64,000 bases of DNA, from IMG/VR virus record IMGVR_UViG_3300022223_000004, positions 6,499-70,498 of that record; one strand, 5' to 3'. Source of the stretch: a virus. The position numbers and the translations under genes are program-made. Below are positions 4,439-64,000 of the stretch, piece after piece. Below the pieces are notes generated by a model. It saw only the letters and a list, made by a program, of their open reading frames with translations, had not been told where the DNA came from and ran no database searches. Every line of letters starts with the position of its first letter. The stretch's first letter is position 1.

Positions 4439-7400
4439 TTATTTAACTCCTGCAACTCCCGGTGATGGTGCTATAACAACAGCGGGAATTTCAATAAACT
4501 TGCCAGTGGCTGTATGGGTAACTTTTATTGTGTACCCTGCTGAATTGCCGCCATAATTTGCCGATAAATATCTTTGGTATATTGATGATATTATAGTTCC
4601 ATCCCAAACTGATCTTCCTGTATTTGATCCTATGTCAACCGTAAAATCTCCAACAACCGCACCATATGAACTAGCAAAAGCATACCAGAATGAACGAATC
4701 TTTAAAGCAATATTTGTGCTTGATGTCTCTGAGCCATAATAAACAACATGGCGAAAAGTAAAAGTAGCAACAACAATCCCCCCTTCTTCAAAACGAATAG
4801 TGGATTCATTCCACAATTGTGTTGAATAGGTATAGGTCGCCAAATTGTCATATGTATAAATCATATAGCCGGTTCTTTTCGGCCCGTAATTTGTGCCATC
4901 GTACTCAAATTGTATTTGTGGTGTTTGTACTGGTTGCAACGAAGATTTCTCAACCGATATTCCCGCTGAAATATAAGTTGCATCAAGGGAACTTTGTAAT
5001 CTACCGACTGAGCTTAAAGCGGTTGGAACTCGACCATCTGTTAATTCGGTTGGCCTGTTTGCAAGATACGTTGACCAATTGGCACCATACCCTGCTTGGT
5101 AGCTTGAGCCATTGTGACCGTAAAAAAATCTGTTTGTGCTATGGATCCATAAATCACCTGTATCGCCTGCTGGAGTTGTTGATTGTACAAAAATATTATT
5201 ATTGGTAGCTGAGGTTTCAATTCCAGAAAGCTTTGTATTTGCAGTGCCATCAAGATTCGCCAAACTTTTATTAATAACCTGAGTTATTAAGTCTGCCGAA
5301 TTCTCTGTTGCTAATGCACCTGCATCAGAAATATTAGCCATTACATTATTGGTAACACTGGATGCCAAATCGGCCCCATTGCCTAGTTGATAACTGGAAC
5401 CGTTATGACCATAAATATATTTATTGGTACTGTGGATCCAAATATCACCAGTGTCACCTGCTGGTGTACCAGTTTGGACAAAAATATTATTATTGGTTGC
5501 TGAGGTTTCAATTCCAGAAAGCTTTGTATTTGCAGTGGCGTCCACATTGGCTAAACTTTTATTTATAACTTCACCCGTGGATAAGTCCACATTATCTTTT
5601 GTCGCCAATGCACCTGAATCTGAAATATTAACCATTTGATTATTGGAAACGGAAGTTGCCAAATCAGCACCATTACCTATTTGGAAAGAGCTTCCATTAT
5701 GCCCATAAATATATTTAGTGGTGCTGTGAATCCATATGTCGCCATTATCACCTGCTGGTGTACCAGTTTGTACGAATACCTGGTTTTTTGTTGCTCCTAC
5801 ACTTGCAGGGTTAGGGGTAATTGGTGTCCAATTGGTCCAATCCCCCACCTCTCCATTTGCGTAGTATGATCGTATCCTATAATGTCGTGGTGCTGAGTCT
5901 GACACATCATCTATAACCGCGGGTTCTACAAAGTTACGGGTTACTTCTGAAGCTCCTGGGGACCCAGCAGAATCCGCGGCCCTTTCATATTCATAATGGG
6001 AAACGGCTGTTTGCCCCTCATCCTCTATCTCAAGTAGAATTCCATCTGGGATGGTTTTAAATGGCTTTAAAACTGGCTTTCTAGGTGTACTAGTTGGCAC
6101 AGTTTCATCCGCTCCTGGAGTATTAAGGGATTCGCTACCTGTATCATATGTACCCGAATTAGCTTGTTCCATTACCAAAACAGGGAATCCATTTTCAAAG
6201 GAATATTTTTTAATTCTATAAGTTCCAGAGATATCAGGAATATCAACGGTCACCATATCCCACCATCCAACTTGCAAGGCTTTCATGTTACATGGTATAG
6301 AAAGTATCTTTTGTTCCCTGGACCTCCTCTTTTCTATATTAGCGCGATACTGAGCACGGTATTCATTATCAATACCAGGACAATCTATCTCTATTATGAT
6401 TTGATTGCCGCCGTCCGCTGTTTCGTATGAACTGTCAGTCATCAATTTACAGACTTCCTCTCTGTAATCCCTTGATGCACTTACATAGTTTACCTTCACA
6501 GCATTATAAAGATCGCTAATCTGTTTTTTAGTTGTATAGGAAATAGGACCAGCTACCCAGGATTCATCTATAGTTATAGTTGGTGCGGTATATTCTCCAG
6601 CATGGCATTTCCATGTTCCTGCTATAACGTCAAAATTAATGACTCCTGCCATACAAGCTTCCAGCATATCTATATTATCTTCCGGCTCAGAAGAGGCGAA
6701 TGCTAAATTGGCTGTATATTTTTTAATGGTAGTGGTATCCGGAGCAAGGAAAGTGGTATCACATACATTGGCAGCGGCTGCAAAGGTATCCCAACCGTCC
6801 TGTGTAAAATCCTCATCTGGATCGGAACCGAGTCCACCATCTAATTCATCCATCACTATATAAGTAGCGGCTATCACCGCTGGGTTGTCGGACCATTCCC
6901 ATGTTGAGGGATCATTGGCCCTGTGCAACCCAGAGCCTCCCCTTGTGGTATCTTTCCGAACGTCATAGCATTTATTCCCTTTAATGAGCCTATTAAGCTC
7001 AGATGGTTTTCCATTTGGAAAAGCTTTCTGGAATTTCTTCTCATTATCTGCACCCATAGGTCTTATTAATTTCAATACCGTATAGGGAATGCCTTTTAGT
7101 TTATGGTTAACAGTCCAACCATCATATGCAGCCTCCAGCCATCCATTATAGGGCTGGGTATCTAATCCCTGATAGGATTGCAAGTATACCATAGGATTCG
7201 AGGAAGCATCTTTCCATTTGAATAGGTCAACGTAATGCACTATCCCAAGGTCCAGCACTATGTCCGCATCAGGTATTCTTTCACCATCAATCCAGAGGTC
7301 CTCTAGACCCTCAATTCCCCCTGTGTGTGTGATTCCATGAGCAATCCCCACATATAATTCTTCCTTTGATCCATCACCATCAACGTCCCTAGTTTTCACA

Positions 7401-30513: not shown

Positions 30514-30819
30514 ATCACTCTCCTACTTTCTGCTGGTTTTTTCTTCGTTTATTTAGTTTAGGAAATAAATCAAAAAGGACAATAATGTTCACCAAAGCCA
30601 CATATGCCATCAGTGCTACAAATACTACCAAATTCTCAATCACCTTCTTCCTCTCCTGTTTTTATCAATATTCCGTCCATCCATGCCTCTATAGATTCCT
30701 CTATATCGGTTGGTTTTTCTAGGCAATGAGATATTCCAATAGCCTTTTGCATATCCTTTTTCAGGGACTCTGGTATAACTTCCTTGTTTTCTTTCTCGTC
30801 CTCTTCCATTTCCTTTTCC

Positions 30820-39024: not shown

Positions 39025-39540
39025 CTATTTTCCCTTTTTATACTTCCAAGAATACAATGCCATTAAGGTTGCGTCTGCCCTATCTATATCCTTTTTTCTG
39101 GAAAAGAAATGCCGATGGTCAGGAAACATTTTACATACCAAATCCCTAGCGGCATCTTTATCTTTGTTAAGAAGGGAAAAGGATTTTTTCCAAATCGCTG
39201 GAGTAGTCATAATATAAGGAATATTATTATAGGCTAATGCCATTTCCAACATCCCTGCTGCCTTGCCAAAACTAAACATGGAAGTCACCCCTTGGCGGGG
39301 CATAGCTCCTACTTGTTCCATCATCCCAAATTTAATCTCATACGTTCCAGAAATAGTGCCAAACAATTGTAGGAGTTTGCTGGCATCTAGTTGATTGCCT
39401 TTTCCGCTACTCTTTGCAATTATTGGAAAATCAAAAACATCAAATAAGTCTCCTTCTTCAGAAACAAGGGATACCGCTCCTTTTAATCCAGGATCCAATC
39501 CTAAGTATGCAGGAATTTTTATGAGTTGTTTTCTATCCAT
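39025..39540 (-). CDS. RuvC-like Holliday junction resolvase
   Basis: 'LGLDPG..GA', 'EQVGAMPRQGVTSMFSFG', 'P..WK', 'RADA.LMA'. Confidence 0.88.
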   Translation of the reverse strand: MDRKQLIKIPAYLGLDPGLKGAVSLVSEEGDLFDVFDFPIIAKSSGKGNQLDASKLLQLFGTISGTYEIKFGMMEQVGAMPRQGVTSMFSFGKAAGMLEMALAYNNIPYIMTTPAIWKKSFSLLNKDKDAARDLVCKMFPDHRHFFSRKKDIDRADATLMALYSWKYKKGK

Positions 39541-40714
39541 CAAGAATCCCTGAATGTTTCCCATAAGACTCCAATAAAAGTTTGTATAAATCCTCCTCTA
39601 TTATTGTGTCTATTACTAAATGAACCCTGACAGACTTCCCATTGTTTACCGCTTGATGTGGTTTATGGATTTCTAAGTAATATAATTTTCCTGCCTCCAT
39701 GTGGTGTTTTTGTTTTCCTCCTTCCATATCCCATGTGGTAAACCAAACCTTGTTATTAGTGACCAAAGGGATATGCAATCGAGCAATGCCCTTTTTAGCG
39801 AATTTAACCTCCTTGCCCATCTTATCCGTGTGTCTACCTAGCTCTCCTCCCCCAGGAGTTAAAAACATAAATCGAATCCTATCCTTTTTCCCTGGTATGC
39901 TATTGCATAGCCTTTGCACTAAAGGAAATTTTTTCATCAAAGGGGTGTCTTTGCATTTTGCATCCAATAGATTTTCATTTTCTTTTTTCCATTTTCTAGG
40001 CATAGAGGAGGGCTTTATAATGAATCTTTCATCCCCATATCCTCGCAGACTCAAAGCTGACCAAGAATTTCCTTTATTGTAATTACTCCAATGATTTGCT
40101 CCTTGCAATTCAGAAACCTGTTTAGCCAACTTCCGCGCATCTTTTTTAAAGGAGTCACTAATCGAAATTGGAAAACAATCCAATCTATCTGGATAAAAAG
40201 CCTCAGGCTCATTTAAGTTAAAGATCACATTGGGTCCTGCTTTTACAAAGACTCCTATAACATCTGCAAAGGCCGTCACCTTTGAAGTGGCATGGAAATA
40301 CCCTCTAGTATTTAAAGGAGACAAAAGCTTATGACTATCCTCTCCTAAAGGAAGTTCCAATACCAAAGGGTTTTTCTGTTTAATGATTTCCCTCAAAAGG
40401 TGGATCCTCATTTTACAACTATCCCCTTTCATAGCAAAATAATCCAAACGGGTGTAAGGACCTATGATCTTTGCTACAGGGAATCCTGCAATATTTTGTA
40501 TCAAGGTGGTTCTCCTATTCAAGGAGGATAGTTTGCCGAATGCCACCATTCTTTTATCCTTGTGCATAGTAAAGGATAAAGCAGGATCCATTCCGTTCAA
40601 TTTATGCTTATTCATTTTCCTAAATGGATCTTTTAAAACCCTGCTCTCTTCCTCTCCACATATAGAAAGGATTTTTTTCATATTAGACTTTTTTAGGGGA
40701 ATGATAACAGTCAT
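39533..40714 (-). CDS. 2OG-Fe(II) oxygenase (Asp/Asn beta-hydroxylase-like) with N-terminal GNAT-like domain
   Basis: 'RIRFM.L.PGGGELGRHTD', 'RLHIPLVTN', 'KPHQAVN.G...RVHLVID' give HxD...H...R. Confidence 0.85.
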   Translation of the reverse strand: MTVIIPLKKSNMKKILSICGEEESRVLKDPFRKMNKHKLNGMDPALSFTMHKDKRMVAFGKLSSLNRRTTLIQNIAGFPVAKIIGPYTRLDYFAMKGDSCKMRIHLLREIIKQKNPLVLELPLGEDSHKLLSPLNTRGYFHATSKVTAFADVIGVFVKAGPNVIFNLNEPEAFYPDRLDCFPISISDSFKKDARKLAKQVSELQGANHWSNYNKGNSWSALSLRGYGDERFIIKPSSMPRKWKKENENLLDAKCKDTPLMKKFPLVQRLCNSIPGKKDRIRFMFLTPGGGELGRHTDKMGKEVKFAKKGIARLHIPLVTNNKVWFTTWDMEGGKQKHHMEAGKLYYLEIHKPHQAVNNGKSVRVHLVIDTIIEEDLYKLLLESYGKHSGILDG

Positions 40715-44588: not shown

Positions 44589-47183
44589 TTATTCAAAGTC
44601 AGTGGATGAAACCACCAGTAAAGTTTTTTGGTCTGCCCAATTATCCCCCACTTCAAACTCAGCGATCAGTGGCACATTAATAAAGTCAAGGTCAGGGAAA
44701 ACCATTATCTCTCCTATCAACAATACATCATCCTTATAGGTATCTGCATTTAAGTAAAAACCTATTTCATCATGGGTATTAAGTATTTGGGCAAAATCAG
44801 TTTCCGCATCAAGCCTATTCTGTGCATCAATGGTAATATCTGATGCCAACCCTTGGATACCAGTATTAATCACCTCATTATATTTGATAGGACCTTGACG
44901 GCGCCGACCTAATAATGATTCCACATATCCAAACTGGTGATAGTCCCTCAGTGTTTTATTTTGCCAATCTTTCAATCCTGGATGCTCTTCCCAAAACTCT
45001 CCTGCTAATTCAAAAGCCAGATCGGTTGTGCATTTCATATACCTTGCCAAAGAGGGAGGGGCTGCTCCATAAATTAACGGGAAAACCCATCCATTCTTTG
45101 CGGCATGTCTGGCTTGTTTTATTAAAAGTTTTTTATCCTCAATTTTGTATTCTTCATAGATTCTTTCCAGAAATCCTTTATCCTCTTCCATGAAACGATT
45201 TGCCCAGGTCTGGTGTACATCCATTCCCCCATTTAAAGACTCCACCAATTTTTCATCCCTAGATGCCATAGCCGCACAACGGAACTCAATAGCACCATAA
45301 TCTCCTAAAACCATTTTCATCCCTTTCGGTGCCTTTATAACCTTCCTTATGTATTTATTTTTATGTTTAGGGTAGTTCTGGAGATTCGGATCGGAGCTAC
45401 TTAGCCTCCCCGTAGTGGTAAATTTATCATTATAATTAGGATGAATTCTTCCATCGTCTGCGGTATAGGTATAAATAGCCTCTAGGTTGGTTCCTTTTCT
45501 GGAGTTTAATGACCTATACTCTATAATTAAATGAGGAGATTTATACTCATTTTCAGGGATGGATAGTAATGCCTTTTCATCCGTTGATTCCAACACCTCC
45601 TTCCTTTTCAAAACATCTCTAAAAAGGAAAGAAACATCTTGGGTGGATTCAGGATTAAAATCTGACTTCCCAGACATTCTTTTGAATTTTTTAAGCTCAG
45701 AGGTTTTGTCCAATTCTTTCTTGATTTCAGAGAGCCTCTTGGTAATCTTTTTATCCAATCTCTTGGTTTCTTTAAGATCAGGAACTAATCCTTTAATAGA
45801 TAGGGAAGAAAGGGTACGACTAGTCCTTATATGATGTGGATAAACAAAGTCTAAAAGCCTCCTGTTTTCCTTTCTTAATAAAACCTTGCGCTGTTGTTCA
45901 AATAGCAAATAGGTCATTTTGGCATCGGCTCCATTATATAACAGTACCTCTTCCAAATCCTCTCCAATCATATTTGTTTTATCTAAAGGGAAAAAGGATT
46001 TCATTCTAATTCCAAAATACTGGAAAACTAAAGAGTCTAAATCCAATCCAGTTTTTCCTTTCTTCCTGGGACGCTGGTCTAGGCAATAGGCTTGGGACAT
46101 GGTATCTTCCCATCGCACCTCATCTTGTCTCCTTTTTAGGTAGAGTGTGCCTATACCAAATACACTACCAGACCATTCCATTTCCATATTAGCATTATGG
46201 GCAATCTTATTTCCTGATTTAGACAAAAAGCTTTTAAACTTTTTCTTAACCTTCTCCCTTAGTTTAATTGGCCATCCTCTAGGGTGTAATAAAGGAAAAG
46301 AGTAAGTCTCCTCTCCATCAGATATGGAAGCTGTGAGTAGACAAGAATCAGAGAAGTAAGGGCGCAGTCGTTGAGTTTCATAATCAATTGCAAACTCCTC
46401 CTTTTCTGCAAATCTATCCAAAACCTTGCAGAATTTTTTATATCCTTTTTCTGAATAGTCAGACAAAACCTTAACGCCATCCAGCACCTGTTCCTTATCC
46501 TCAAAAAATGGAATAGGAATTTTTCTTTTGGACTCCCTTTTATGCTCCTTATGGATTTTTTTTAATTCTAATGTAAAAATATGCTCCTCAGGGGATTCTC
46601 TGTACCCTCCTCTTTTATCATGTATCCCAGAATCTACCAAAGAGTTTAACGAAGGTAAGCAATAATACCAGCAAGTATGCTTTCCAATCCTAATTGGAAA
46701 TCTTTTGCCTCGCCAAATCATCAGATTGCTCTCACCAGAAAATCTTTTTAATGGAGTGCTACCCAACCCTATCACTGCCCAAGGCTTTCTTTTCTCTATG
46801 TCCTTTTCTATCCGAGAATGGCAACAATTTACCTCTACCTCAGTGGGGTCCCTGTCTGAGGGAGTAACACATTTTATTACATTGGAAAACCCTGCTGATC
46901 TTTTCATCTCCCTGGGCAAAGAATCGAACAGGTACTCCTGATCATCTAAACTCAGTGGATGTCCATTCATATCGGCGGAGATGGAAGGTGCTGGTCCTAC
47001 AAAATAGAAAATAGGGTGTTTAGCACCTGCATCCTCCATTTTGGGATTTTCCATTTTTTTATTCCTGTCTAAGGGACAGGCTTTACACCCATACCCCCAA
47101 AGGTCCTCTAAAGGGATTTTTCTTAAATCCCTAACAGAGGCTTTTTTGGAAGCAATGGAATCCTGCTTAAAGAAAAAAGACAT
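44589..47183 (-). CDS. family A DNA polymerase with N-terminal family-4 UDG-like domain and 3'-5' exonuclease
   Basis: UDG 'C..CPL...NVIKC..P..R.PT..EV..C'; exonuclease 'IDYET','HNA','YNGADA'; polymerase 'TGRLSS..PNLQN','DYGAIEFR','R..AK...FP.IYG','HDEI'. Confidence 0.93.
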   Translation of the reverse strand: MSFFFKQDSIASKKASVRDLRKIPLEDLWGYGCKACPLDRNKKMENPKMEDAGAKHPIFYFVGPAPSISADMNGHPLSLDDQEYLFDSLPREMKRSAGFSNVIKCVTPSDRDPTEVEVNCCHSRIEKDIEKRKPWAVIGLGSTPLKRFSGESNLMIWRGKRFPIRIGKHTCWYYCLPSLNSLVDSGIHDKRGGYRESPEEHIFTLELKKIHKEHKRESKRKIPIPFFEDKEQVLDGVKVLSDYSEKGYKKFCKVLDRFAEKEEFAIDYETQRLRPYFSDSCLLTASISDGEETYSFPLLHPRGWPIKLREKVKKKFKSFLSKSGNKIAHNANMEMEWSGSVFGIGTLYLKRRQDEVRWEDTMSQAYCLDQRPRKKGKTGLDLDSLVFQYFGIRMKSFFPLDKTNMIGEDLEEVLLYNGADAKMTYLLFEQQRKVLLRKENRRLLDFVYPHHIRTSRTLSSLSIKGLVPDLKETKRLDKKITKRLSEIKKELDKTSELKKFKRMSGKSDFNPESTQDVSFLFRDVLKRKEVLESTDEKALLSIPENEYKSPHLIIEYRSLNSRKGTNLEAIYTYTADDGRIHPNYNDKFTTTGRLSSSDPNLQNYPKHKNKYIRKVIKAPKGMKMVLGDYGAIEFRCAAMASRDEKLVESLNGGMDVHQTWANRFMEEDKGFLERIYEEYKIEDKKLLIKQARHAAKNGWVFPLIYGAAPPSLARYMKCTTDLAFELAGEFWEEHPGLKDWQNKTLRDYHQFGYVESLLGRRRQGPIKYNEVINTGIQGLASDITIDAQNRLDAETDFAQILNTHDEIGFYLNADTYKDDVLLIGEIMVFPDLDFINVPLIAEFEVGDNWADQKTLLVVSSTDFE

Positions 47184-52121: not shown

Positions 52122-53546
52122 TCAGTCCTCTCTCCTAAGGGAAGGTCTTTTTTCTATTTCTTTCCAATACTCCTCTCCGTCGGCTCCAGTTATGTGGACA
52201 CTGTCTGAAATAAATTGTCCAAAAGGAATCCCCTGTGTAGTCAAAACAGTGCCAGAGTCCTCCTCATCCCTGTTTTTAGCAACAAAGAGTCTACACAATC
52301 CTAAACTCCTCTCCAAAGGAGTCTGACAGATGGAAACTACCATATCCGAAGTTGCCGCCTTAGAGTAGTCCTCTGCCATGTGTTTCATGGTCACCCATTT
52401 ACTCTCTGAGGATTCTCTATTACTTTGGGAAGCGGTAACCCCTGCCAAATTCCTTTCTATCATCAAACCCCTTAAATTTCTAAAAACCTGTCCGGTCTCC
52501 ACCCTGATATTTTTATAATCCAAATGCATTAAATCCGCATAGTCCACAATCAAAACGTCTGGAATGAATTTATATTCCCTTTCTATATTATCCAAATATG
52601 TTTCCAATTGTTTAATAGTCAAAGACCCAGTTGGGAATTGTTTAACCAAAAGTCTGTACCTGTTTAGCACAGAAGGCATCCTCCCCTGAATGAATGATGC
52701 CAATCCCTTATTCCTGAAAGTAGGTCGGGTAATTTTTGTAAATTCTATTCCATCAAAATTATTTGATTTATTTCTTTTTAAAATAGCAACTTTATTCCTT
52801 GCCTTTCTCCTTGAGATAGAAAATAGGGATTGGTAGTACCTAGTCATTATTTTTTCTTCTGACATTTCCAAAGAGATATGCAATACATTCTTCCTACGGA
52901 GTAGGCATTGCTTTCCTATATGAACCATAAACCACGTCTTTCCCCTAGAAGGAGGGGCCAAGATGGTTATAATCTCTTTAGGAGCAGGACCCAAACTGAT
53001 CGAATCAAAGTAAGGGATTCCCATAGGGATAAAAGGCGATGATGTCCTTAAATGGTTAAGGACTTTAGAAGGACTCTCACTCAAAAACATTCCATGATCA
53101 AAGGAATGCAATTTCCCTGATTTAGTGGCAGACAGGATAATAGACTCTGCCTCCTCTACGTTCCCATCTTTTAAAAATTTTGCGGCTTCGGCGATCCCTT
53201 TAGTCAACCTCCTTTCTTTAAGAAAAACCGAAAGGGAGGAAAGAATGTATTCCTTATTAATGGAATCTTTTGTACTATATAGATTTTTAAAAACCTGCCT
53301 ATACATTGAAGCTTGCCTTTGATCGGATCCATTTAGCACCTCCTCAAAAACGTCTGGAAGGTGCTCCCCTATTGGGGTATTAAATGTCTCAAAAAAATCT
53401 GCGGCCTCAAAAGCGATCTCCCTGAAAATGGATGAAGAATACATTCCTACCTCAACCGTGTTCTTAATAATGCTGGCTGAAGATGGATCAAAACAAAGCA
53501 AAGTCAAAAGGTTTTCTTGTAATACACCAGAAAAATTATTTTCCAT
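52122..53546 (-). CDS. replicative DnaB-like helicase
   Basis: 'APPSRGKT', 'HISLEMS', 'IVDYADLM', 'TASQ.NR', 'AKNR'. Confidence 0.92.
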   Translation of the reverse strand: MENNFSGVLQENLLTLLCFDPSSASIIKNTVEVGMYSSSIFREIAFEAADFFETFNTPIGEHLPDVFEEVLNGSDQRQASMYRQVFKNLYSTKDSINKEYILSSLSVFLKERRLTKGIAEAAKFLKDGNVEEAESIILSATKSGKLHSFDHGMFLSESPSKVLNHLRTSSPFIPMGIPYFDSISLGPAPKEIITILAPPSRGKTWFMVHIGKQCLLRRKNVLHISLEMSEEKIMTRYYQSLFSISRRKARNKVAILKRNKSNNFDGIEFTKITRPTFRNKGLASFIQGRMPSVLNRYRLLVKQFPTGSLTIKQLETYLDNIEREYKFIPDVLIVDYADLMHLDYKNIRVETGQVFRNLRGLMIERNLAGVTASQSNRESSESKWVTMKHMAEDYSKAATSDMVVSICQTPLERSLGLCRLFVAKNRDEEDSGTVLTTQGIPFGQFISDSVHITGADGEEYWKEIEKRPSLRRED

Positions 53547-53565
53547 TATTTCCCCTACTACTCAA

Positions 53566-54417
53566 CTACAACTGGTCATTTGCATCCCTAAAAAAGGAAG
53601 AAAAGGATATTCCATATTTGGAGAGGTACCGAATTAACTCTTTTTCAGAAGGCTTATCTCCTCCCTTTTCTTCTAGGAAGACCTCACTCCATTCCCTTAG
53701 TTTATAATAAGGAAGGCGAGTCAACCTTCTGTTTAATAATATCAAATTTTTATTGTTAATTAATAATTCTTTTTTCTTTTCCCTGAATTCAGGCTCTTTT
53801 ATTATCCTTAAAGCTGTTTTAATTCCTATCCCTTTAATGCCTGGCAATCCATTATGTCCACCGGTCATGGAAGTAACTTCATTCCACGAATGGGGGGTGA
53901 TACCGAATTCCTCAAAAAAATCCTTGGCGGTGTAAAAACCTTTTTTAGTCCCCTTATATAAGGAAAATTTTAAGTGTATAAATAATTGATAGAGGTCAGA
54001 GTCATTGGACATTGCCACCACCTCTCCATAATCATGGCTTAAATGGGTATAGATGGCTATTAAATCATCTGCTTCCAATCCCTCCCTAACAGCATAGCAG
54101 GCACCAGACATCCTCAAATAATCCATACAAATCTTTTTTGATCTATTTATATGGTCTATGACCTCTGCCTCTTCCTCAGTGAGTTGGCTTTGTTCTTTGT
54201 GGTGTTTATAGTCTCCGCAGTCAGCATACCTATGGTACGGAGGAGAATCTAAGCAATAGACCACTTTGTCTGGACGGATTTCTTTTATTCCAGTGGCAGT
54301 TTGCATTATTATTCCAAATAATGCTCCAGTAGGTTTGCCTTTATAGGACAAATCAGAATAAGCATGAAGGCTTTTATGGAATAAACTACTAAAATCAATC
54401 AATAATAATTTTTTCAT
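53566..54417 (-). CDS. 5'-3' exonuclease / flap endonuclease (T4 RNase H-like)
   Basis: 'LLLID', 'EADDLI', 'SNDSDLYQL', 'LPGIKGIGIKTA'. Confidence 0.9.
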   Translation of the reverse strand: MKKLLLIDFSSLFHKSLHAYSDLSYKGKPTGALFGIIMQTATGIKEIRPDKVVYCLDSPPYHRYADCGDYKHHKEQSQLTEEEAEVIDHINRSKKICMDYLRMSGACYAVREGLEADDLIAIYTHLSHDYGEVVAMSNDSDLYQLFIHLKFSLYKGTKKGFYTAKDFFEEFGITPHSWNEVTSMTGGHNGLPGIKGIGIKTALRIIKEPEFREKKKELLINNKNLILLNRRLTRLPYYKLREWSEVFLEEKGGDKPSEKELIRYLSKYGISFSSFFRDANDQL

Positions 54418-54433
54418 TCTTTTCCCTTGATAC

Positions 54434-54472
54434 AAAAAAAATCCCAGTAGGTAGGAAAACCTACCCACTGGG
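54434..54472 (-). terminator. rho-independent terminator
   Basis: CCCAGTGGGTAGG-TTTT-CCTACCTACTGGG followed by A and T8. Confidence 0.9.
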
Positions 54473-54476
54473 GGTG

Positions 54477-54519
54477 CTTCGGCATACCGCAAACAGGAGA
54501 GAAATAGGTATGCCAGAAG
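54477..54519 (-). ncRNA. 3'-UTR hairpin exposing an anti-SD loop UAUUUCUCUCCUGUUUGC
   Basis: Stem CTTC-T-GGCATACC/GGTATGCC-GAAG; the loop is the reverse complement of the early-gene RBS motif AAACAGGAGA. Confidence 0.55.
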
Positions 54520-54530
54520 TCTATAGGGCC

Positions 54531-56012
54531 CTATTTCATAAAGCCGTTCTCTTTCAGCAAAGATATAATCCGATGGACACGCTCAAACACCACAGACACT
54601 GTGGTGTCATTGACATCCAGTTTGGATTTCTTCAGAAGGGACCTGATTTTCTTTTCAGAGGCTTTTGGATTTTTACAGATGATTTCCATAACTTGTGAAG
54701 TGGCAGATGACTCCTCATCTTCACCATCTTCATCATCCTCTTCCTCAGCCTCCTCTTCCCCTTCAGAGGATGAAAGATAGGCAGTGTCAATGTCTGCAAA
54801 CTTCACAGTTACGATGCCATCATCCCCCTCTACCTTAAGGGCTTTCTTGGAGACTTTAACCACCTCCCCCTCAGCTAAGGTTTCTTCATCTTCATCCAGG
54901 AGAACAACTTCCATGCCTTCTTCAATGTCAGAAGGATCAATTTCTTCCCCTTCTACCTCATCGGCATCATCCTCCTCGGAATCATCCTCCTCACCTTCTT
55001 CTACCTCATCGGCATCATCATCGTAAGAAGGTTCAGGCAAAAGGGCGGCTGTGTCAATGTCCTTTACCTTGACAGTTTTAACATCACCATCCTCACCTTC
55101 TACTTTGATAGACTTCTTGGAGATTTTAATCACCTCCCCCTCAGCCAGGACCTCTTCATCTTCATCCAGGAGGACAACTTCCATGCCAATTTCGATATCA
55201 GAAGGATCAATTTCTTCCCCTTCTACCTCATCGGCATCATCCTCCTCGGAATCATCTTCCTCATCGGAATCATCGGCATCGGCATCAGTTGGATGATATA
55301 CCAGTACATGGTCAATGTCTGATTTCTCAGCCTCTACCTTATCCCCATCTTCATCTTCCAGGATGACCTTTTTCTTGGTCACTTTAAGGACCTTGCCAGT
55401 GGCCAATAGCTCGGAATCGGAATCGTAAAGCTCAACTTCCATGTCAACTTCAATATCAGAAGGATCAATTTCTTCCTCATCGGAATCATCTTCCTCATCG
55501 GAATCATCTTCCTCTTCCTCCTCACCTTCTTCCTCTTCCTCCTCGCCTTCTTCTTCCTCTTCCTCTTCCTCACCGGAAGAAAGGAGCTTTTTCTTCCATT
55601 CCTCAGGATCGAATTCAGCAAAAAGGACAGGTGATTTTTTGGAATTCACCAGGTCTACTGCGGCATTATGCCAAACCTGTGCGCCCTCTGACAATCGGTC
55701 CCAATCATCATCACCCAATTCAGCTATTTCCACTACCAGTCTTTTCAGATAGGCCTTCTCCGATTCTTTCTCGCCGCGAGGATCAGCACCGGTGACCTTC
55801 AGGATGGATTCTTCAATCACATTCCCAGGTTTTCCTTTTGCTTTCCCCTTCGCAGGTGCCTTTTTGGAAGACTTTTTGGCTGGAGCTTCTTTCTTGCCTT
55901 TGCTCTTTTTATTATCAGGTTTCTTTTTTGTGGCCGCTTTCTTCACAGGTGCCTTTTTACTACCAGCCTTACCCTTTTTTGTGGCCGCTTTCTTTTTGGC
56001 TTTTGTACTCAT
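54531..56012 (-). CDS. Lys-rich N-terminus, very acidic protein with three Sm/SH3-like repeats and C-terminal HTH-like domain
   Basis: Three ~58-aa repeats 'EIDPSDIE..MEV.L.D.D.E.LA.G.V.KV.KK.....EDG....V...DID', separated by D/E linkers. Confidence 0.8.
   Translation of the reverse strand: MSTKAKKKAATKKGKAGSKKAPVKKAATKKKPDNKKSKGKKEAPAKKSSKKAPAKGKAKGKPGNVIEESILKVTGADPRGEKESEKAYLKRLVVEIAELGDDDWDRLSEGAQVWHNAAVDLVNSKKSPVLFAEFDPEEWKKKLLSSGEEEEEEEEGEEEEEEGEEEEEDDSDEEDDSDEEEIDPSDIEVDMEVELYDSDSELLATGKVLKVTKKKVILEDEDGDKVEAEKSDIDHVLVYHPTDADADDSDEEDDSEEDDADEVEGEEIDPSDIEIGMEVVLLDEDEEVLAEGEVIKISKKSIKVEGEDGDVKTVKVKDIDTAALLPEPSYDDDADEVEEGEEDDSEEDDADEVEGEEIDPSDIEEGMEVVLLDEDEETLAEGEVVKVSKKALKVEGDDGIVTVKFADIDTAYLSSSEGEEEAEEEDDEDGEDEESSATSQVMEIICKNPKASEKKIRSLLKKSKLDVNDTTVSVVFERVHRIISLLKENGFMK
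54780..55480 (-). repeat. three ~260-270-bp tandem domain repeats
   Basis: tcagaaggatcaatttcttcc recurs at about 54928, 55198 and 55456. Confidence 0.9.
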
Positions 56013-56033
56013 AATATTTCTCCGTTTGTTTCA

Positions 56034-56618
56034 TTATAAAAAATAATCCCTCACTGATTGAATTAAATCAACCTGATCAGAATCATATCCTAACAATGCG
56101 CCTAAATGACGATTGTGTTCCGCTTTTCTCAGTCCTTGATTTTTCCAAGACTCCGTTATCTTTTCCAATAATTCCCTGGGTGCCTCTAAGAATAAACTTA
56201 AAACCGCCCTGACCTCTGGAGGAGCTTTCTCTAATAAGGAAAGCATTTCCCCCTCATTATGGGTCTTATGGATGCCTATAACATGAGAATCAGAAATATC
56301 CTCTTCCATGAAAATTTCAACACCAAACCTCTCGGTTTTTGTATTGGACAACTTATTAATATAATTAATCAAGGCCACTTTATATAGTGCCATAAACCAT
56401 TTAGGATTATCTACCTTTCTGTACATTCCCTTCATTTTTAGGAATAGACAGTGGGCCTCCTGTAACAAATCCTCCCTGTCAAATATATTAGAATCCACCC
56501 GCCAAAAGTTTTTTGTTATATAATTAACAGCAAAACCCTCCAACGGACCCTCAAAGACAGGAATGTATTTTTGTTTCCTGTCAGTTAATTTTCTCCTTTT
56601 AAGTTTACCCACGAACAA
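56034..56618 (-). CDS. sigma-70 region-2-like phage transcription factor
   Basis: 'FDREDLLQEA...FLK....Y......F..LY...L.N.I..L'. Confidence 0.65.
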   Translation of the reverse strand: MFVGKLKRRKLTDRKQKYIPVFEGPLEGFAVNYITKNFWRVDSNIFDREDLLQEAHCLFLKMKGMYRKVDNPKWFMALYKVALINYINKLSNTKTERFGVEIFMEEDISDSHVIGIHKTHNEGEMLSLLEKAPPEVRAVLSLFLEAPRELLEKITESWKNQGLRKAEHNRHLGALLGYDSDQVDLIQSVRDYFL

Positions 56619-57036
56619 GCCTCCTTCTCCTTGCCTTCGGGTTGGTTTTCTTTTTCTTAGTATCCACTTTTAAAGGGATCCTTTTCATAGGCCTATCATG
56701 TGAGGGCCTCCACCCCACAGGCATGATTCGCACTAATACTATCCCCGAAGGAGTTGGAGTGCGCCGCACTCTGATATTATATGGTTCATCTCCTTCTGGA
56801 ATGGGATGGATCTTATGGTTTAGGTACCAAGATTTAGGATTCACTTGGCAGTTACCATTAGGCTCCAAAACCCCATAGGTGGTGTAAGGACCTCCAGGCA
56901 TTTCATATAGCTCACTCCATTTTTTTGTATACTTTAACCAAACTCTTCCAACAACTTTACACTCCCTCATAAAGCTGTTCATATGTTTCCTTACCACATG
57001 CCTTGGAGGAGCCTTTAGTAGTGTATTACGCCTCAT
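56605..57036 (-). CDS. hypothetical basic protein
   Basis: AAACAGGAGA RBS. Confidence 0.65.
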   Translation of the reverse strand: MRRNTLLKAPPRHVVRKHMNSFMRECKVVGRVWLKYTKKWSELYEMPGGPYTTYGVLEPNGNCQVNPKSWYLNHKIHPIPEGDEPYNIRVRRTPTPSGIVLVRIMPVGWRPSHDRPMKRIPLKVDTKKKKTNPKARRRRLVRG

Positions 57037-57079
57037 TCTTTTTCTCCTGTTTATTTTGAATGAAATGGAATATAAAACT

Positions 57080-58066
57080 TTAGGGCCTTAATGCGCCGGA
57101 TCTTTTTAAATGTGCCAGTCTTTTCAAAAGTTTATCCAACTCCTTATACGCCGAATTCATCATTGTTGGGGGTTTTCTACTCCTATCAAAACGGCTCTTT
57201 TTGGAAGCAACCTCAAACAGGAGCTCCCTTGCTCTTTTTCCTGAAAGTTTCGTTCGGGTCAATGAAGCTTGGTCATCTGAAAGGGAAGCGGCAGCCTCTG
57301 AGGCACCTTTTTTCTTTTTCTCCTTTTTATGTTTTTTCAGAAGCTGGGTTTGGACGTCTTTGTCTTTGGAAGTCCTCACAATTCTATTTACCAGGCTCAC
57401 TGTCACCGTTCCCTCTTCTAATCCCTTTTTCAAAGCGGGTGCAGCATCTATTAATGCAAGCCTAGTCCTTATTGTCGTTACAGACTTTCCGGTTGCCGCC
57501 ATTAGCTCCTCTTCACTCATGCCCATTTCAGAGAGCCGTTTAAAGGCCACAGCCTCCTCTAAGGGAGTGAAAGGCTTTCCTTCATTGGCAATCAAGGTAT
57601 GCATCATTGCTTCCACTTCGGAGGTATTGGGGCTATCTTCTATAGCAGGAATAGAAGTGAATCCTTTATGTCCCTCCTCTATAAGGGACAATACGGCCCT
57701 CAATCTCCTAGCCCCATCTACTAAGACCAATTGTTTTTTGGCATTCCTTCTGACATGGATAGGACGATAGACACCTCCTGTTTTTATAGAAGTTTTTATT
57801 TCCTCCATGTCCCCAAAATCTATTCTAGGATTCCAATTATCCTCCACTAAGATTTTCCTGGGATCAACATGGAGTAGTTCCTCTTTTTTTACTACCACAC
57901 CCCTAGACTTGGCTTTGGCTTTGGGTTCAGCTTTGGCTTTGGGTTCAGCTTTGGCTTTGGGTTCAGCTTTGGCTTTGGGTTCAGCTTTGGCTTTTGCTGG
58001 AGCTTTGGCTTTTGCTGGAGCTTTGGCTTTGGGTTCCGAAATTTTCTTTTGCATTTTGTCTTCCAT
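57080..58066 (-). CDS. ParB/Srx-domain protein with HTH
   Basis: 'NPR', 'SIK..GV..PI.V', 'LVDGARRLRA', 'EEA.AF.RL...G....E....TGKS...I..RL.L'. Confidence 0.88.
   Translation of the reverse strand: MEDKMQKKISEPKAKAPAKAKAPAKAKAEPKAKAEPKAKAEPKAKAEPKAKAKSRGVVVKKEELLHVDPRKILVEDNWNPRIDFGDMEEIKTSIKTGGVYRPIHVRRNAKKQLVLVDGARRLRAVLSLIEEGHKGFTSIPAIEDSPNTSEVEAMMHTLIANEGKPFTPLEEAVAFKRLSEMGMSEEELMAATGKSVTTIRTRLALIDAAPALKKGLEEGTVTVSLVNRIVRTSKDKDVQTQLLKKHKKEKKKKGASEAAASLSDDQASLTRTKLSGKRARELLFEVASKKSRFDRSRKPPTMMNSAYKELDKLLKRLAHLKRSGALRP
57909..58036 (-). repeat. 18-bp tandem repeats encoding (E/A)PKAKA
   Basis: ttggctttgggttcagct x4 and ttggcttttgctggagct x2. Confidence 0.92.
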
Positions 58067-58094: not shown

Positions 58095-58658
58095 TTACTT
58101 AATAATGCTATCATCATCAATTAAGGATTCATATTCATATAAAATATGCTTTAGAACCTTAAAAGGAACCACACAAGGCAGTTCCTTTTGTTTTTTCTTT
58201 GAGTTTTTCTCCACTACCCCCGACCTAGTGGCCTTTAAGTAATGTGATCTGGAATTCTCTTCCTCCCAAACCTCTATCCTTAAAACTTCCCTAGGATCCC
58301 CCTCATAAGGAATTTCCTCAGAAGAAAGGAGTCTTAATTTAAAATCAGGAAGGGGAACCTCTTCCTTTACTTCCTCAGGAGATAAAAAAGAGTCTACCTC
58401 TTTTATATCTATTCTCCAACCAGAAGAAGGGTCCTCCGTATCCTGTATCCTCATTCCCCCTTTTCTGTAATACTTTTCCAAATAAAAGCCATCTTCATCT
58501 TTTAATTGGATAATGACAACCCTTGAATTGTATCCTTTTACTCTTCCAACCAGTACCTCTCCTGTCTTCTCTCCGAAGCCAGAAACTAAGATATCAAAAG
58601 GATTTTTCAGAAAAATGGTCCTGTCAAAAGCTTCACGCCAAAGCTTTTTTCGTTTCAT
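58095..58658 (-). CDS. hypothetical protein (187 aa)
   Basis: AAACAGGAGA RBS. Confidence 0.7.
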   Translation of the reverse strand: MKRKKLWREAFDRTIFLKNPFDILVSGFGEKTGEVLVGRVKGYNSRVVIIQLKDEDGFYLEKYYRKGGMRIQDTEDPSSGWRIDIKEVDSFLSPEEVKEEVPLPDFKLRLLSSEEIPYEGDPREVLRIEVWEEENSRSHYLKATRSGVVEKNSKKKQKELPCVVPFKVLKHILYEYESLIDDDSIIK

Positions 58659-58751
58659 TATATTTCTCCTGTTTTAAAGAAACCTGAGGTCTAGGAAAAT
58701 CTTTCTAGACCTCAAATAACCCACCGTGCTCTTCCCTTAAAGGGAATATGC

Positions 58752-59503: not shown

Positions 59504-61072
59504 TCAATCGACGAATACCAAAATATCCTTCGCTCTGGTTATGGCAACATATTCCAAGTTGGATTCTTGCTCCAATTGCCATGGCTGTTTTGCATAAGGA
59601 CTGGGGAGTCTTTTTGCTCTCTGGTATAGAAAAACCCTGTCCCATTCTCTCCCCTTAGATTTGTGAATAGTGGAAAGGAGGACGGCAGGAACCTCTCCTT
59701 CTGTATCCACAAAATACTTTTTAATCCAGTGTACCATTTCCTTGACTTGGTTCCCACCGGAATCAATAACCCCCCGGGCAATGGCCTCAATTGCTCCAGA
59801 AAGATCAGAAAGCTGATCCATTCTGTAATGTTTATTAGAGGTCACTGCCTTTTCCATTTCCTTATCAATGTACTCCCTGAAAAGGACCATCATATCTGGA
59901 ATAGATTTGGCCTTTTTCCATTTAGAGATCACCTCAATCAATCCGCTGCCTATATCGGTCCCCTCTATTTTACAAGGGATGCCATTTGCTAAAAATGTGT
60001 AGGTAAGAGAGACAAGAGGTCCCGTATTCCGGCAGAGTATGGCATCCCCTTTACCAACACTCATGGTTTTATACCAAGGTTCCGTAGTCTTCCTTTCATC
60101 AATAGCCATTACCTTTCCTTCTGGGGCAGACTCATGGGCAATCAAATCTGGAACAATCTTATTGGCCTCCAAAACTACACTTTTGGGACAACGGTAAGTG
60201 GTGGTCAAAGGCAGTGATACGGATTCCATTTTCTTTGCTATCTTATCCATCGAGTCCGCATCGGCTCCTGTGAATCCATAGATAGCTTGCCTATCATCCC
60301 CAACAGCCACTAATCTTCCATTAGGGGAAAGCATAAGCAATGCCAATTCCCTTCTGGCATCGTTTGTATCCTGTGCCTCATCAATTAATACCCAATCCTT
60401 TTTAAATACCTTCATTCCATGGACTAAAGGTGCCAGGATCATATCGTCAAAATCAATCAGTTCCTTATCCCGATTGAATGATTCTTCCAAAACCTTCATG
60501 GAACATTTTATTATATCCTCCATTGTAATTCTTTGGGGATTGCTTATCCCATTTACATTAAACCGATCGACTAGCTCCTGCCAAATGGAAAACTCATGGA
60601 TATCATATTTGTATCCAATTGCTTTTTGTTTCGCATGGGAGACAAGTTTTTTTATAACAAACCTTTCGGTAAAATATATGCTTTCCTCTGGGGAGGAAAC
60701 TTCCTCATCCTGTTCGGCAAACTCTTTCGCTATTATCACGGTCTTGCCTGCGAACACTTTTGGACGCCTACCTCTAGCATTCCGGGATATTATTTTCATT
60801 CCAAAAGAATGGACTGTCCCTGTCTCAACCCCAGAAAAATCATGCCCCTCATTGCGCTTTTTGTCCAAACGGATTTGGAATTCTTCCGCAGCTTTTTTAT
60901 TATATGCCATCAATGATACAGTCCCCAATCCATACTCCACAATAGGGGTTACCACTCCCTCAATCAGGGTATAAGTTTTTCCACAACCTGCTCTGGCCAC
61001 TAAATTAAGGGACCCCGTTCCTGAGAGTACCCAATCACGGACGTTGGATTGTTGCTCTGATAGATTTGCCAT
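59504..61072 (-). CDS. UvrD/REP-like SF1 helicase
   Basis: 'ARAGCGKT', 'DFDDMI', 'IDEAQD', 'VGDDRQAIYGF', 'YRCP', 'STIHKSKGREW', 'YVAITRAK'. Confidence 0.93.
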   Translation of the reverse strand: MANLSEQQSNVRDWVLSGTGSLNLVARAGCGKTYTLIEGVVTPIVEYGLGTVSLMAYNKKAAEEFQIRLDKKRNEGHDFSGVETGTVHSFGMKIISRNARGRRPKVFAGKTVIIAKEFAEQDEEVSSPEESIYFTERFVIKKLVSHAKQKAIGYKYDIHEFSIWQELVDRFNVNGISNPQRITMEDIIKCSMKVLEESFNRDKELIDFDDMILAPLVHGMKVFKKDWVLIDEAQDTNDARRELALLMLSPNGRLVAVGDDRQAIYGFTGADADSMDKIAKKMESVSLPLTTTYRCPKSVVLEANKIVPDLIAHESAPEGKVMAIDERKTTEPWYKTMSVGKGDAILCRNTGPLVSLTYTFLANGIPCKIEGTDIGSGLIEVISKWKKAKSIPDMMVLFREYIDKEMEKAVTSNKHYRMDQLSDLSGAIEAIARGVIDSGGNQVKEMVHWIKKYFVDTEGEVPAVLLSTIHKSKGREWDRVFLYQRAKRLPSPYAKQPWQLEQESNLEYVAITRAKDILVFVD

Positions 61073-61162
61073 TATCTTTCTCCTGTTATTAACAAAATTA
61101 ACATCGGGATGATTCCCGGCAATGCCCTCTCCAGAGGAAAGGACATTAACTGGAATAATCCT

Positions 61163-61809: not shown

Positions 61810-61901
61810 CCTTCTCTCCTATTTATACATTTTGGAATCAGAAACTCTATTAAAAGCTCCTGCAATTGGACACTCCGAAAAATGTCCAATAACTGCACCT
61901 C

Positions 61902-62613: not shown

Positions 62614-63120
62614 CTATTTATGGTACCCATGAAGGTAGAAGGTTAGTCTGTCATCAGAATTGATCTCCTCTGTACATCCCTCCTCCTTATCTGCTATATG
62701 GATTACAGATTCGGAAATAATAGATGCAACACCAAAAACAATCTCCTCTCCTTCAGAGTCCTCCGCTGATATAAGCATACCACTGGCTATGTCTTTAAAA
62801 GGGATGGCAGGTGGTTCTATAAAAGCCCCCTCTGTATTTAAACAAGGACAGGTAGCTGCCGCCCTTTCATCTTCCCATGAAGTACCGCAGTTCCTACACC
62901 TGATTTCCTCCTGTTTCTCTTCCTTAGGTTTATCAAAATCAATGCATTCAGCTACCTCATATCTAAGGGTTACATCAATCACATACCCCTCCTTTTCTGG
63001 GAATTTTTTGTCAAATAATTTTTTAACAAAGCGGGCTTGGACTTCGCTAGTTACCGAATGGGTTGCGGTTGCGAATAAATGCTTTCCGTCCAGTGCGACA
63101 TTAATCTTATAATAATACAT
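62614..63120 (-). CDS. hypothetical early protein with central zinc motif
   Basis: AAACAGGAGA RBS; CRNC...CPC. Confidence 0.7.
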   Translation of the reverse strand: MYYYKINVALDGKHLFATATHSVTSEVQARFVKKLFDKKFPEKEGYVIDVTLRYEVAECIDFDKPKEEKQEEIRCRNCGTSWEDERAAATCPCLNTEGAFIEPPAIPFKDIASGMLISAEDSEGEEIVFGVASIISESVIHIADKEEGCTEEINSDDRLTFYLHGYHK

Positions 63121-63161
63121 TGTCTTTCTCCTGTTTTTAAATTTCCTGAATGGATAGTTGA

Positions 63162-63401
63162 TTAAGATAACATATCAAACCAGTCTTCGGTAGAAAGGCC
63201 ATGCCTTTCTCCTATTTCTTCCCACCGAGCGCAACAATCATCCATCTTCGACTGATAATACTGGGCGGATTTAACACAAGCCATCCTCTGTGCTTCTGCC
63301 TTAGAATCGGTCTCTGTATCTTTAAAATATTGAGACCCTTTAAATACAGCCCAAGTTCCATTCCTTGTTTTCTTCACTCGGTATTTTAATCTAATGGTCA
63401 T
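63162..63401 (-). CDS. hypothetical early protein (79 aa)
   Basis: AAACAGGAGA RBS. Confidence 0.7.
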   Translation of the reverse strand: MTIRLKYRVKKTRNGTWAVFKGSQYFKDTETDSKAEAQRMACVKSAQYYQSKMDDCCARWEEIGERHGLSTEDWFDMLS

Positions 63402-63415
63402 CTACCTTCTCCTGT

Positions 63416-63871
63416 TTATAGTGTGTTTTCAACAAAGCAAATTGATCCGGGATTGTTCCACTCCCAATACCCTTTATGCTCCTTTGCAAATTGCTCCAAA
63501 GCTTCACAGATCCATGGCAGTTCCCCACGGAACTCCCCATAGTAGTCTGCAAAGTAAAAACCGTTACCATCCTCCAAATCAATTACCAGCCTTGCTTGGC
63601 TATCAATAATGTATTTTGGAAAAACTTCCTTGCCATTAACTGGATCAATTGCTTTTGGCAATTTCTCAGCCAATGCCCTTACCCTGTCCCTTCTATATAC
63701 AAGGTTAACGGTATCTTTCGCGTCCTCTAGATCAGGGGTAAAGTAATCTGCCTTCGCCTCCCACCTGCCATCTATGTAAAACTGGACAACATATTCTTGC
63801 CATTCTGAATCATAATAGATTTTTGCTTTCTTGTTTCCATCCTCTATCGTGATTTTTAATCGCTTAGTCAT
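63416..63871 (-). CDS. hypothetical early protein
   Basis: AAACAGGAGA RBS before MTKRLK; 'IYYDSEWQEYVV.F......ADYFT.D..DA' motif. Confidence 0.7.
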   Translation of the reverse strand: MTKRLKITIEDGNKKAKIYYDSEWQEYVVQFYIDGRWEAKADYFTPDLEDAKDTVNLVYRRDRVRALAEKLPKAIDPVNGKEVFPKYIIDSQARLVIDLEDGNGFYFADYYGEFRGELPWICEALEQFAKEHKGYWEWNNPGSICFVENTL

Positions 63872-64000
63872 GTACCTTCTCCTGTTTAAGTGTATAAATT
63901 TATTTCCGGATAACTGCATCCGTGATTGGACACTCCGAAGAGTATCCAATGGCTGAGACAGTTTTAATAATCACCTACCCACATTTCCTCTTCATCATCC

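Follow-up and report, generated by a model that had tools for sequence, protein, structure and literature searches.

The timing of phage gene expression is mostly attributed to proteins such as sigma factors, antiterminators and translational repressors. RegA of phage T4, for example, is a protein that acts on the start regions of many early mRNAs and represses their translation. Here we describe a locus for which the proposed factor is, unlike RegA, an RNA loop. It lies in IMGVR_UViG_3300022223_000004, a 70,498-nucleotide (nt) IMG/VR virus contig of an uncultured phage from sediment (CheckV completeness estimate 76%), of which we analysed bases 6499–70498, a stretch of 64,000 nt termed the window. 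Near position 54,500 of the window a hairpin, placed just behind the stop codon of a gene that we call P0001, presents an open loop that is the exact complement of a ribosome-binding site (RBS) shared by several genes of the same phage.

A phage RNA known to work on start regions is c4, which is co-transcribed with its target operon and whose loops pair with the ribosome-binding region and block expression. It is encoded ahead of the one operon that it controls (icd-ant), and Rfam lists it as a family of its own. The hairpin described here would resemble c4 as a phage RNA co-transcribed with its targets; unlike c4, the hairpin region of the window has no Rfam family match. No match in the window reaches the Rfam gathering threshold, the 12 matches found at E up to 10 in 54380–54580 all fall far below the cut-offs, and by these scans the hairpin belongs to no described family. 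The c4 antisense RNA of phages P1 and P7 is named in PMC8201110 (cited here, like the sources below, for part of its text).

Bacterial 3′ untranslated regions (3′-UTRs) provide further precedents. That of icaR in Staphylococcus aureus carries an anti-Shine–Dalgarno (anti-SD) motif that pairs with the Shine–Dalgarno (SD) sequence and blocks formation of the initiation complex, with action in cis or in trans both possible; the motif is 7 nt long, lies 260 nt behind the stop codon and has its own single gene as target, and cleavage by RNase III was shown (PMC3868564, in part). Our locus shares with icaR a pyrimidine-rich anti-SD motif in a 3′-UTR. It differs in that a 10–16-nt complement is held in the loop of a terminator-adjacent hairpin and faces several candidate genes on a polycistronic phage transcript, and in being known from sequence alone. 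RNAIII and RsaE of S. aureus use hairpin loops with UCCC-type seeds to bind the SDs of several mRNAs in trans (PMC3868564, in part); these are host RNAs with C-rich, G-pairing seeds, whereas the CU-rich seed considered here reaches past the SD into a phage-specific AAAC prefix.

Small RNAs (sRNAs) made from 3′-UTRs have been described on both sides of the phage–host relationship. CisR is a host 3′-UTR RNA that acts on the cep mRNA of CTX-phi (PMC13250501, in part), and for 3′-UTR sRNA candidates of Pseudomonas phages the targets are given as not known in the cited part of PMC10914365. Like terminator-sharing 3′-UTR sRNAs, our element consists of a seed hairpin followed by an intrinsic terminator and U-tail at the mRNA end; unlike CisR and the Pseudomonas phage candidates, the RNA is predicted from DNA only. 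It has the 3′-UTR position and a terminator in common with the mRNA, and a single-stranded seed that is conserved, with conservation resting on n = 2. Among open-access papers and bioRxiv preprints we found no phage RNA matched to a standardised RBS of the phage's own genes.

A hairpin with an open loop ahead of a terminator

All 94 genes of a simple gene call lie on the minus strand, and intergenic sequence makes up 7.2% of the transcribed strand. The hairpin occupies one of these gaps (Table 1). It begins 12 nt past the P0001 stop codon (54533–54531), reads in minus-strand order CUUC-U-GGCAUACC [UAUUUCUCUCCUGUUUGC] GGUAUGCC-GAAG, and is followed after 4 bases by the strongest terminator-like site of the 52–64 kb region (stem 54472–54443, U-tract 54441–54434). 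The gene for a 5′-3′ exonuclease (FEN) starts only 17 nt past the U-tract, and is therefore reachable only via read-through.

The 43-nt hairpin is predicted to fold at −15.5 kcal/mol (z −5.3) and a 121-nt region that includes both stems at −46.3 kcal/mol (z −4.4); in neither case did any of 200 shuffles fold as well. Apart from one weak C–G pair the loop bases are open, and opening the loop costs 0.9 kcal/mol. A preliminary description of the window had placed a hairpin with an open loop, followed by a terminator, at the 3′ end of P0001, and both sequence and folding confirm this arrangement.

Tandem hairpins ahead of terminators are common in this contig. There are four intergenic CUCCU sites on the transcribed strand, and only this one sits in a hairpin loop; of 15 intergenic hairpins, one other has a loop as large as its 18 nt and none a larger one. 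The hairpin described here has a mirror case: outside the window, near coordinate −2977, in intergenic sequence, a hairpin on the transcribed strand combines a 9-bp stem with an 18-nt loop containing the SD-like word GAGGAAAUAAAAG. As a separate observation, a perfect 12-nt palindrome, ATAGGGCCCTAT (54523–54534), overlaps the P0001 stop just ahead of the hairpin.

The loop complements a shared ribosome-binding site

The RBS in question, AAACAGGAGA, occurs seven times in the window against 0.28 expected, and none of 100 shuffles reached seven. Six copies lie on the minus strand, five of them 6 nt ahead of an ATG and one 8 nt ahead of a GTG; the only plus-strand copy is the loop itself, read on the other strand. 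An eighth copy, which is also an RBS, stands at window coordinate −6073, outside the window. The general RBS of this phage is aaAGGAGAaauaaaAUG, and the AAAC-prefixed form is concentrated at 57–64 kb. The exact 10-nt complementarity and the positions of the copies in the window, including a 9-nt copy at a UvrD-like helicase gene, had been given correctly in the preliminary description.

Table 1. Coordinates of the hairpin, its neighbours, the copies of the shared RBS and the second hairpin (window coordinates unless a contig is named)
Feature	Position	Strand	Remarks
RNA hairpin	54477..54519	minus	4 bp + 1-nt bulge + 8 bp stem; 18-nt loop
18-nt loop UAUUUCUCUCCUGUUUGC	54489..54506	minus	unpaired probability 0.8-1.0; 15-16-nt core identical in G001
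UCUCCUGUUU	54491..54500	minus	exact complement of the shared RBS 10-mer AAACAGGAGA
Intrinsic terminator	54434..54472	minus	13-bp stem (8 GC), 4-nt loop, 8 U
Upstream gene P0001, 493 amino acids (aa)	54531..56012	minus
Downstream 5′-3′ exonuclease (FEN) gene	53566..54417	minus	ATG at 54417
RBS copy AAACAGGAGA	57043..57052	minus	6 nt before ATG, 143-aa gene; net −14.9 kcal/mol
RBS copy	58665..58674	minus	6 nt before ATG, 187-aa gene; 16 nt 88% complementary to loop
RBS copy	63127..63136	minus	6 nt before ATG, 168-aa gene
RBS copy	63408..63417	minus	6 nt before ATG, 79-aa gene
RBS copy	63878..63887	minus	6 nt before ATG, 151-aa gene
9-nt copy AACAGGAGA	61079..61087	minus	RBS of UvrD-like helicase gene
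11-nt copy AAACAGGAGAG	30652..30661	minus	before GTG of 42-aa hydrophobic open reading frame
Second hairpin	L213:6791-6830, G001 = IMGVR_UViG_3300009788_000229	transcribed strand	exact scan and folding

The match was also evaluated by an unbiased scan in which each 10-mer of the 70,498-nt transcribed strand was compared with the 94 predicted start regions. The loop 10-mer had the most partners (six) of all 10-mers, and in a scan with words of 8 nt two of the top words, with eight partners each, stand side by side in the loop. Under a family-wise expectation, defined as the complement of any GGAG-containing 10-mer common to at least five start regions, the whole strand should contain 0.30 such complements and its intergenic part 0.022.

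Interaction prediction with accessibility included gave a net energy of −10 kcal/mol or better for 13 of the 94 start regions, the median of the 94 being −5.2. Nine of the 13 belong to the 15 genes of the 54.5–64 kb block upstream of the hairpin, and only 2 of 150 shuffled loops formed as many strong duplexes. The best predicted partner is the copy before GTG (net −18.5), whose 42-aa open reading frame (ORF) is doubtful as a gene. The start region of P0001, to which cis pairing of the icaR type would apply, forms only bulged duplexes with the loop (net −11.1, rank 11 of 94); better partners lie 2.5–9.4 kb upstream, perhaps on the same transcript.

Gene duplication was rejected as the source of this RBS identity: the genes concerned are not paralogues, the closest pair among them reaching an E-value of 0.011 over 17 aa. 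Their start regions are alike over 22–35 nt (57026–57057, 58648–58687, 61068–61101, 63116–63149, 63384–63418 and 63854–63888), with the loop matching the AAAC prefix, and in one pair the likeness extends into the first six codons (MT[K/I]RLK). Since the genes are unrelated, start-site cassettes seem to have been copied onto them. The preliminary description spoke of a regulon of early mRNAs. The shared RBS holds; the genes of the 64–54.5 kb block would be early to judge from their position only, and a regulon would be a further step beyond the shared site.

Read on the plus strand, the same letters form AAACAGGAGAGAAATAGGT-ATG, which could be the real RBS of a 62-aa ORF (54510–54698), or a relic of one; the preliminary description had already named this alternative. 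These 16 nt do look like a full RBS of this phage with an ATG after it, and the 16-mer is often a genuine RBS elsewhere: an ATG lies 3–10 nt past AGGAGA in 28 of the 120 GTDB matches listed, and several of 26 IMG/VR matches are likewise real RBSs with ATG. We nevertheless regard a plus-strand gene as highly improbable. The spacer between GGAG and ATG is 10 nt; of 67 genes, 49 have a spacer of 6–8 nt and 7 one of at least 10 nt. The ATG is within the stem. The ORF runs antisense to the C-terminal part of P0001, whose counterpart in the closest syntenic relative (described below) by eye ends the ORF of the homologue. Its codon score is −0.05, the 22nd of 109 plus-strand ORFs and similar to spurious ones, against 0.13 ± 0.07 for real genes; all 94 called genes are on the opposite strand, and promoter-like sites on the plus strand number 24, against 24.7 expected by chance. 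Finally, in a second phage with the same loop, no start codon stands behind the RBS-like word on the opposite strand, and a stop follows after four codons.

A second phage with the same loop on another stem

That second phage came from an exact scan of IMG/VR with 16 nt of the loop, which returned 26 stretches. Twenty-five have no noteworthy flanking stem (best 6 bp). The remaining one lies in G001, a viral contig of 33,098 nt that is 34% complete, so that only a third of the genome is available. Here a perfect 13-bp stem carries a 16-nt loop with the same 15-nt core (−31.3 kcal/mol, z −4.5), and a U-tract follows directly; the window hairpin has no U-tract of its own. The stems of the two hairpins have no sequence in common. 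Loops normally drift faster than stems, and an identical loop on unrelated stems is what selection on the loop predicts.

The G001 hairpin is on the transcribed strand. Three small genes with strong SDs form a leftward operon in this contig, which otherwise runs rightward, and the hairpin follows them at 70–130 nt; it would act as the terminator of that operon. A 136-aa ORF covers the core without an SD, unlike nearly all G001 genes, and a search for relatives of it returned G001 itself only. The case favours an RNA element read in the CU-rich sense over a plus-strand RBS or ORF. A TATAGG.CCC word that resembles the palindrome ATAGGGCCCTAT is also found ahead of the G001 hairpin.

The two phages are otherwise distant. 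Only DnaB, SNF2 and one further protein are common to G001 and the window, at 20–29% identity; the G001 fragment has no P0001 homologue, and no protein is common to the flanks of both hairpins, there being no local alignment between the flanking proteins.

An element read as double- or single-stranded DNA, be it a hairpin, a cruciform or a replication-related binding site for a protein, would have a fitting neighbourhood in both phages. The window hairpin is directly upstream of FEN, a DnaB-like helicase and an SNF2 helicase, then PolA, a clamp loader and RecA; in G001 two iteron-like arrays adjoin the hairpin, one of 4 x 21 nt (6559–6775, spaced 59–69 nt) and one of 3 x 24 nt (6411–6546). Beside the window hairpin, however, there are no iterons and no AT-rich tract, the flanks are coding on both sides, and cumulative GC skew runs monotonically across the window with no turning point, that is, with no origin signal. 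The orientation relative to the upstream genes and to a U-tract is the same in both phages, which fits a role as RNA, and we consider a DNA-level element improbable.

Searches for further members were made in several ways. Exact matches to the core numbered at least 265, namely the 26 in IMG/VR, at least 120 in GTDB and at least 119 in IMG/VR in which a different base follows the core. Going by how densely large-loop hairpins occur in the contig of the window, we estimate the chance of one clean case among them at about 0.001–0.01. A fuzzy search for the core with up to three mismatches in 213 loci (1.96 Mb) gave no further hairpin. Several candidates were set aside: L364, from a 15-mer scan, has a long interrupted stem, and its core falls within an opposite-strand ORF of 99 aa that resembles a zinc ribbon (weak NinG and PHROG matches); the GTDB loci L295 and L216 are homologous stretches of coding sequence, with no hairpin. 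A pattern built on the stem alone matched at least 100 IMG/VR stretches, and those among the matches listed, judged by their loops and by tblastn, were chance palindromes; L097 (8182–8214), with the same 8-bp arms and an SD-like loop, shares no proteins with the window. The sole JGI metagenome match to a pattern of stem plus flanks, L184 (100–138), is an unrelated contig with the same 8-bp arms, in which the SD-like word of the loop is the genuine start region of a signal-peptide protein on the other strand.

Relatives of the locus

No close relative of the locus was found in the databases searched. A DNA search of INPHARED with 53500–56100, at settings for near and for distant matches, gave no match, and an IMG/VR search with FEN alone found no relative; a search with DnaB alone gave two relatives at 25–26% identity, which were not useful. 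Among 80 distant IMG/VR FEN loci, the closest syntenic relative (L104) shares nine proteins with the window.

Arguments for and against an anti-SD loop

Taken together, the position, the openness of the loop, its match to the shared RBS and its recurrence in G001 suggest that the hairpin is probably a working RNA element. As to what it does, we tentatively read it as a 3′-end anti-SD loop acting on RBS regions, here chiefly those of seven or eight genes that share one start-site cassette; we hold this as a serious possibility, somewhat short of an even chance. A number of results weigh against it and are gathered here.

First, the finding was a post hoc choice, made while reading through 64 kb. 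By raw hybridisation energy the loop ranks only fifth of 210 CUCC-centred 18-mers of the transcribed strand, and CU-rich coding stretches pair with RBSs equally well on paper, with four windows pairing better. Bacillus subtilis offers a precedent in favour of the reading: anti-SD-like 8-mers hundreds of nt from the RBS repress, in that they pair with it, block initiation and speed decay. Such words are depleted from genes as harmful (PMC12697547, in part). Here, in contrast, anti-SD-like words are not depleted from coding sequence (CTCCT 71 observed, 55.8 expected), and the word of interest, unlike those long-range words, is displayed in a conserved loop.

Secondly, conservation is narrow. The best of 140 FEN homologues is 43% identical. 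The syntenic relative L104 has a plain terminator after its P0001 homologue, heterogeneous RBSs and no anti-RBS hairpin, and a coding-strand hairpin with a CUCC loop followed by a terminator was found in 0 of the 80 distant FEN loci. Among the matches listed, the at least 120 GTDB and at least 119 further IMG/VR stretches include no clear additional member, so that the hairpin family has two members among the matches examined. No RNA run with this sequence was found; the sequencing runs that contain it are two DNA metagenomes of sediment, one of them possibly the source of the contig. The second run has the same phage at low depth and without variants, with 54006–54672, the hairpin included, not covered.

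Thirdly, the RBS set does not travel with the loop. In G001 AAACAGGAGA serves as RBS in 0 of 65 predicted start regions, and a 10-nt complement of the loop occurs in one start region only, in another register. The expectation that loop and phage-specific RBS would covary, which came with the preliminary description, was thus not borne out in G001, and the identity of the loop in a phage lacking the RBS set indicates that it is conserved for a reason other than a phage-specific RBS. Either the loop is a general anti-SD seed to which genes were recruited in the present phage, or it has another conserved partner.

The first two groups of results would be accommodated by an ordinary stabilising 3′ hairpin before a terminator, with the RBS complementarity and the look-alike in G001 both being coincidences of CU-rich sequence. 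Besides the post hoc choice and the four coding windows, this draws on the whole-strand expectation of 0.30, which is not negligible, on the lack of conservation in L104 and the 80 distant loci, on the commonness of tandem pre-terminator hairpins in the contig, and on the number of IMG/VR 16-mer matches, 26 being about what chance would give (a rough estimate of ours with an assumed collection size). It has to contend with the intergenic expectation of 0.022, with the loop being the top anti-RBS word of the whole strand, and with the one clean case among at least 265 exact matches, which agrees in orientation and in kind of site, has the core bounded exactly and shows the loop identical on stems that share nothing. 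We think coincidence rather unlikely.

The third group points elsewhere: the hairpin may be functional with its loop read by a partner common to both phages, the RBS match being secondary. The partner could be a conserved host RNA or an RNA-binding protein of host or phage, acting for example on termination or on read-through into the replication genes. Beyond the identical core in a phage without the AAACAGGAGA set, it is consistent with this that the replication module depends on terminator read-through, that no RNA polymerase is present among the window proteins scanned, and that the terminal GC of the core is not accounted for by phage RBSs. The ten 3′ bases of the core (54491–54500) are moreover a perfect complement of 16S rRNA 778–787 (Escherichia coli K-12 rrsH). 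This is a low-probability lead: a 10-nt match is reached by 38 of 2000 shuffled cores (p about 0.02, for a single rRNA), the region is structured, the rRNA compared is that of E. coli, and the match leaves the 5′ half of the core unexplained. A common partner must also be reconciled with the absence of a shared protein beside the two hairpins and of a P0001 homologue in G001, and no alternative antiterminator pairing is seen by eye beyond a weak, wobble-rich option. We judge a common partner unlikely on balance, though it deserves appreciable weight.

The upstream protein

The preliminary description called P0001 an Sm-repeat gene and suggested its product as a chaperone of the RNA. P0001 has a K/A-rich, histone-tail-like N-terminus, three small β-barrel repeats (52–74% identical) with long poly-acidic linkers between them, and a three-helix C-terminal domain with a weak match to the Penicillinase_R-type helix-turn-helix. 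At E up to 0.01, Pfam matches are to Nodulin_C, PUA and PUA_4 only, with no LSM/Hfq signature. The best structural matches of a three-repeat model (pLDDT 75) are Spt5 KOW repeats and tandem Tudor domains (E 6e-6). A single-repeat model (pLDDT 87) matches MscS-family, Tudor and Edc3/Scd6 LSm domains and several Hfq chains at E 5e-3 to 3e-2, the Edc3/Scd6 LSm and Hfq chains at TM 0.65–0.76; Hfq, LSM and DUF2642 clusters in the Atlas stay below TM 0.35. The likeness to Sm proteins would thus stand at the level of the fold and not at that of the Pfam signature: ‘Sm-like’ is at most a fair term for the fold class of the modelled repeats. An Sm-type chaperone role for P0001 could be proposed from the predicted small β-barrel fold, which KOW and Tudor domains match as well.

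The contigs of both DNA runs carry an 18-nt insertion at 55470, in an acidic linker of P0001.

Gene layout and other features of the contig

The block from 64000 down to 54531 contains mostly small genes whose function is not known. Annotated genes of the window include those for ParB-like, UvrD-like and FEN proteins, the DnaB-like and SNF2 helicases, PolA with a UDG-like N-terminus, a clamp-loader-like ATPase, RecA and an SbcD-like phosphoesterase.

Several of these and other genes have features of interest in their own right. PolA (44589–47183, minus) carries its uracil-DNA-glycosylase-like (UDG-like) domain at the N-terminus, and a 393-aa protein (39533–40714, minus) has an Asp/Asn β-hydroxylase domain. 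Within the ParB-like gene, 57894–58055 (minus) is an 18-nt tandem array, seen as seven overlapping 54-nt copies with a start-to-start distance of 18 nt; it lies in the sequence for the N-terminal part of the protein, and the run contigs show small insertions at 57975–57978. Outside the window (coordinates −1476 to −988), a 163-aa ORF has a codon score of 0.157, the first of the 109 plus-strand ORFs and the only one with gene-like codon usage; the minus-strand gene call has a gap at this place, and the ORF may be a true gene on the opposite strand. A 31-nt intergenic element is present in two copies, 84% identical (61865–61895 and 63925–63955), each upstream of small genes; it folds as a hairpin, ATTGGA.A.TC-loop-GAGTGTCCAAT, and is possibly promoter-associated or regulatory.

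A model for the anti-SD loop and its implications

If the hairpin is an anti-SD loop, as we tentatively prefer, it would be carried as a functional RNA element at the 3′ end of transcripts of the 64–54.5 kb block, either staying on the mRNA or remaining as a decay-resistant 3′ fragment of about 85 nt made up of hairpin, terminator and U-tail. The open CU-rich loop would serve as an anti-SD seed and pair with purine-rich ribosome-binding regions, its best partners being the seven or eight genes with the cassette (A/U)AAACAGGAGAA, mostly in the same upstream block. Since the loop would pair with the RBSs of the cassette, accumulation of the 3′ end would lower the translation of these genes, in trans or by long-range folding in cis. 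We infer that such RNA accumulates, pairs in cells and represses; the outcome would be a delayed negative feedback on the first gene block.

A more far-reaching version would make the element a conserved module, namely a terminator-linked hairpin with an invariant CU-rich loop that acts in trans as an RNA-only ‘RegA’ over genes with one RBS cassette. A bolder one still, prompted by the complementarity to 16S rRNA 778–787 and by the retention of the loop in a second phage that lacks the cassette, would have it act on the host translation apparatus. We regard such extensions as speculative and distinctly unlikely.

If the anti-SD reading is true, the phage would have a compact, self-timed means of shutting down a gene block, in which every transcript would leave a residue that represses its own class, and the regulon would have been built by copying start-site cassettes onto unrelated genes. 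Irrespective of which reading is right, a 15–16-nt loop kept on unrelated stems in two phages is a small and concrete motif that can be taken into reporter constructs and into searches of viromes.

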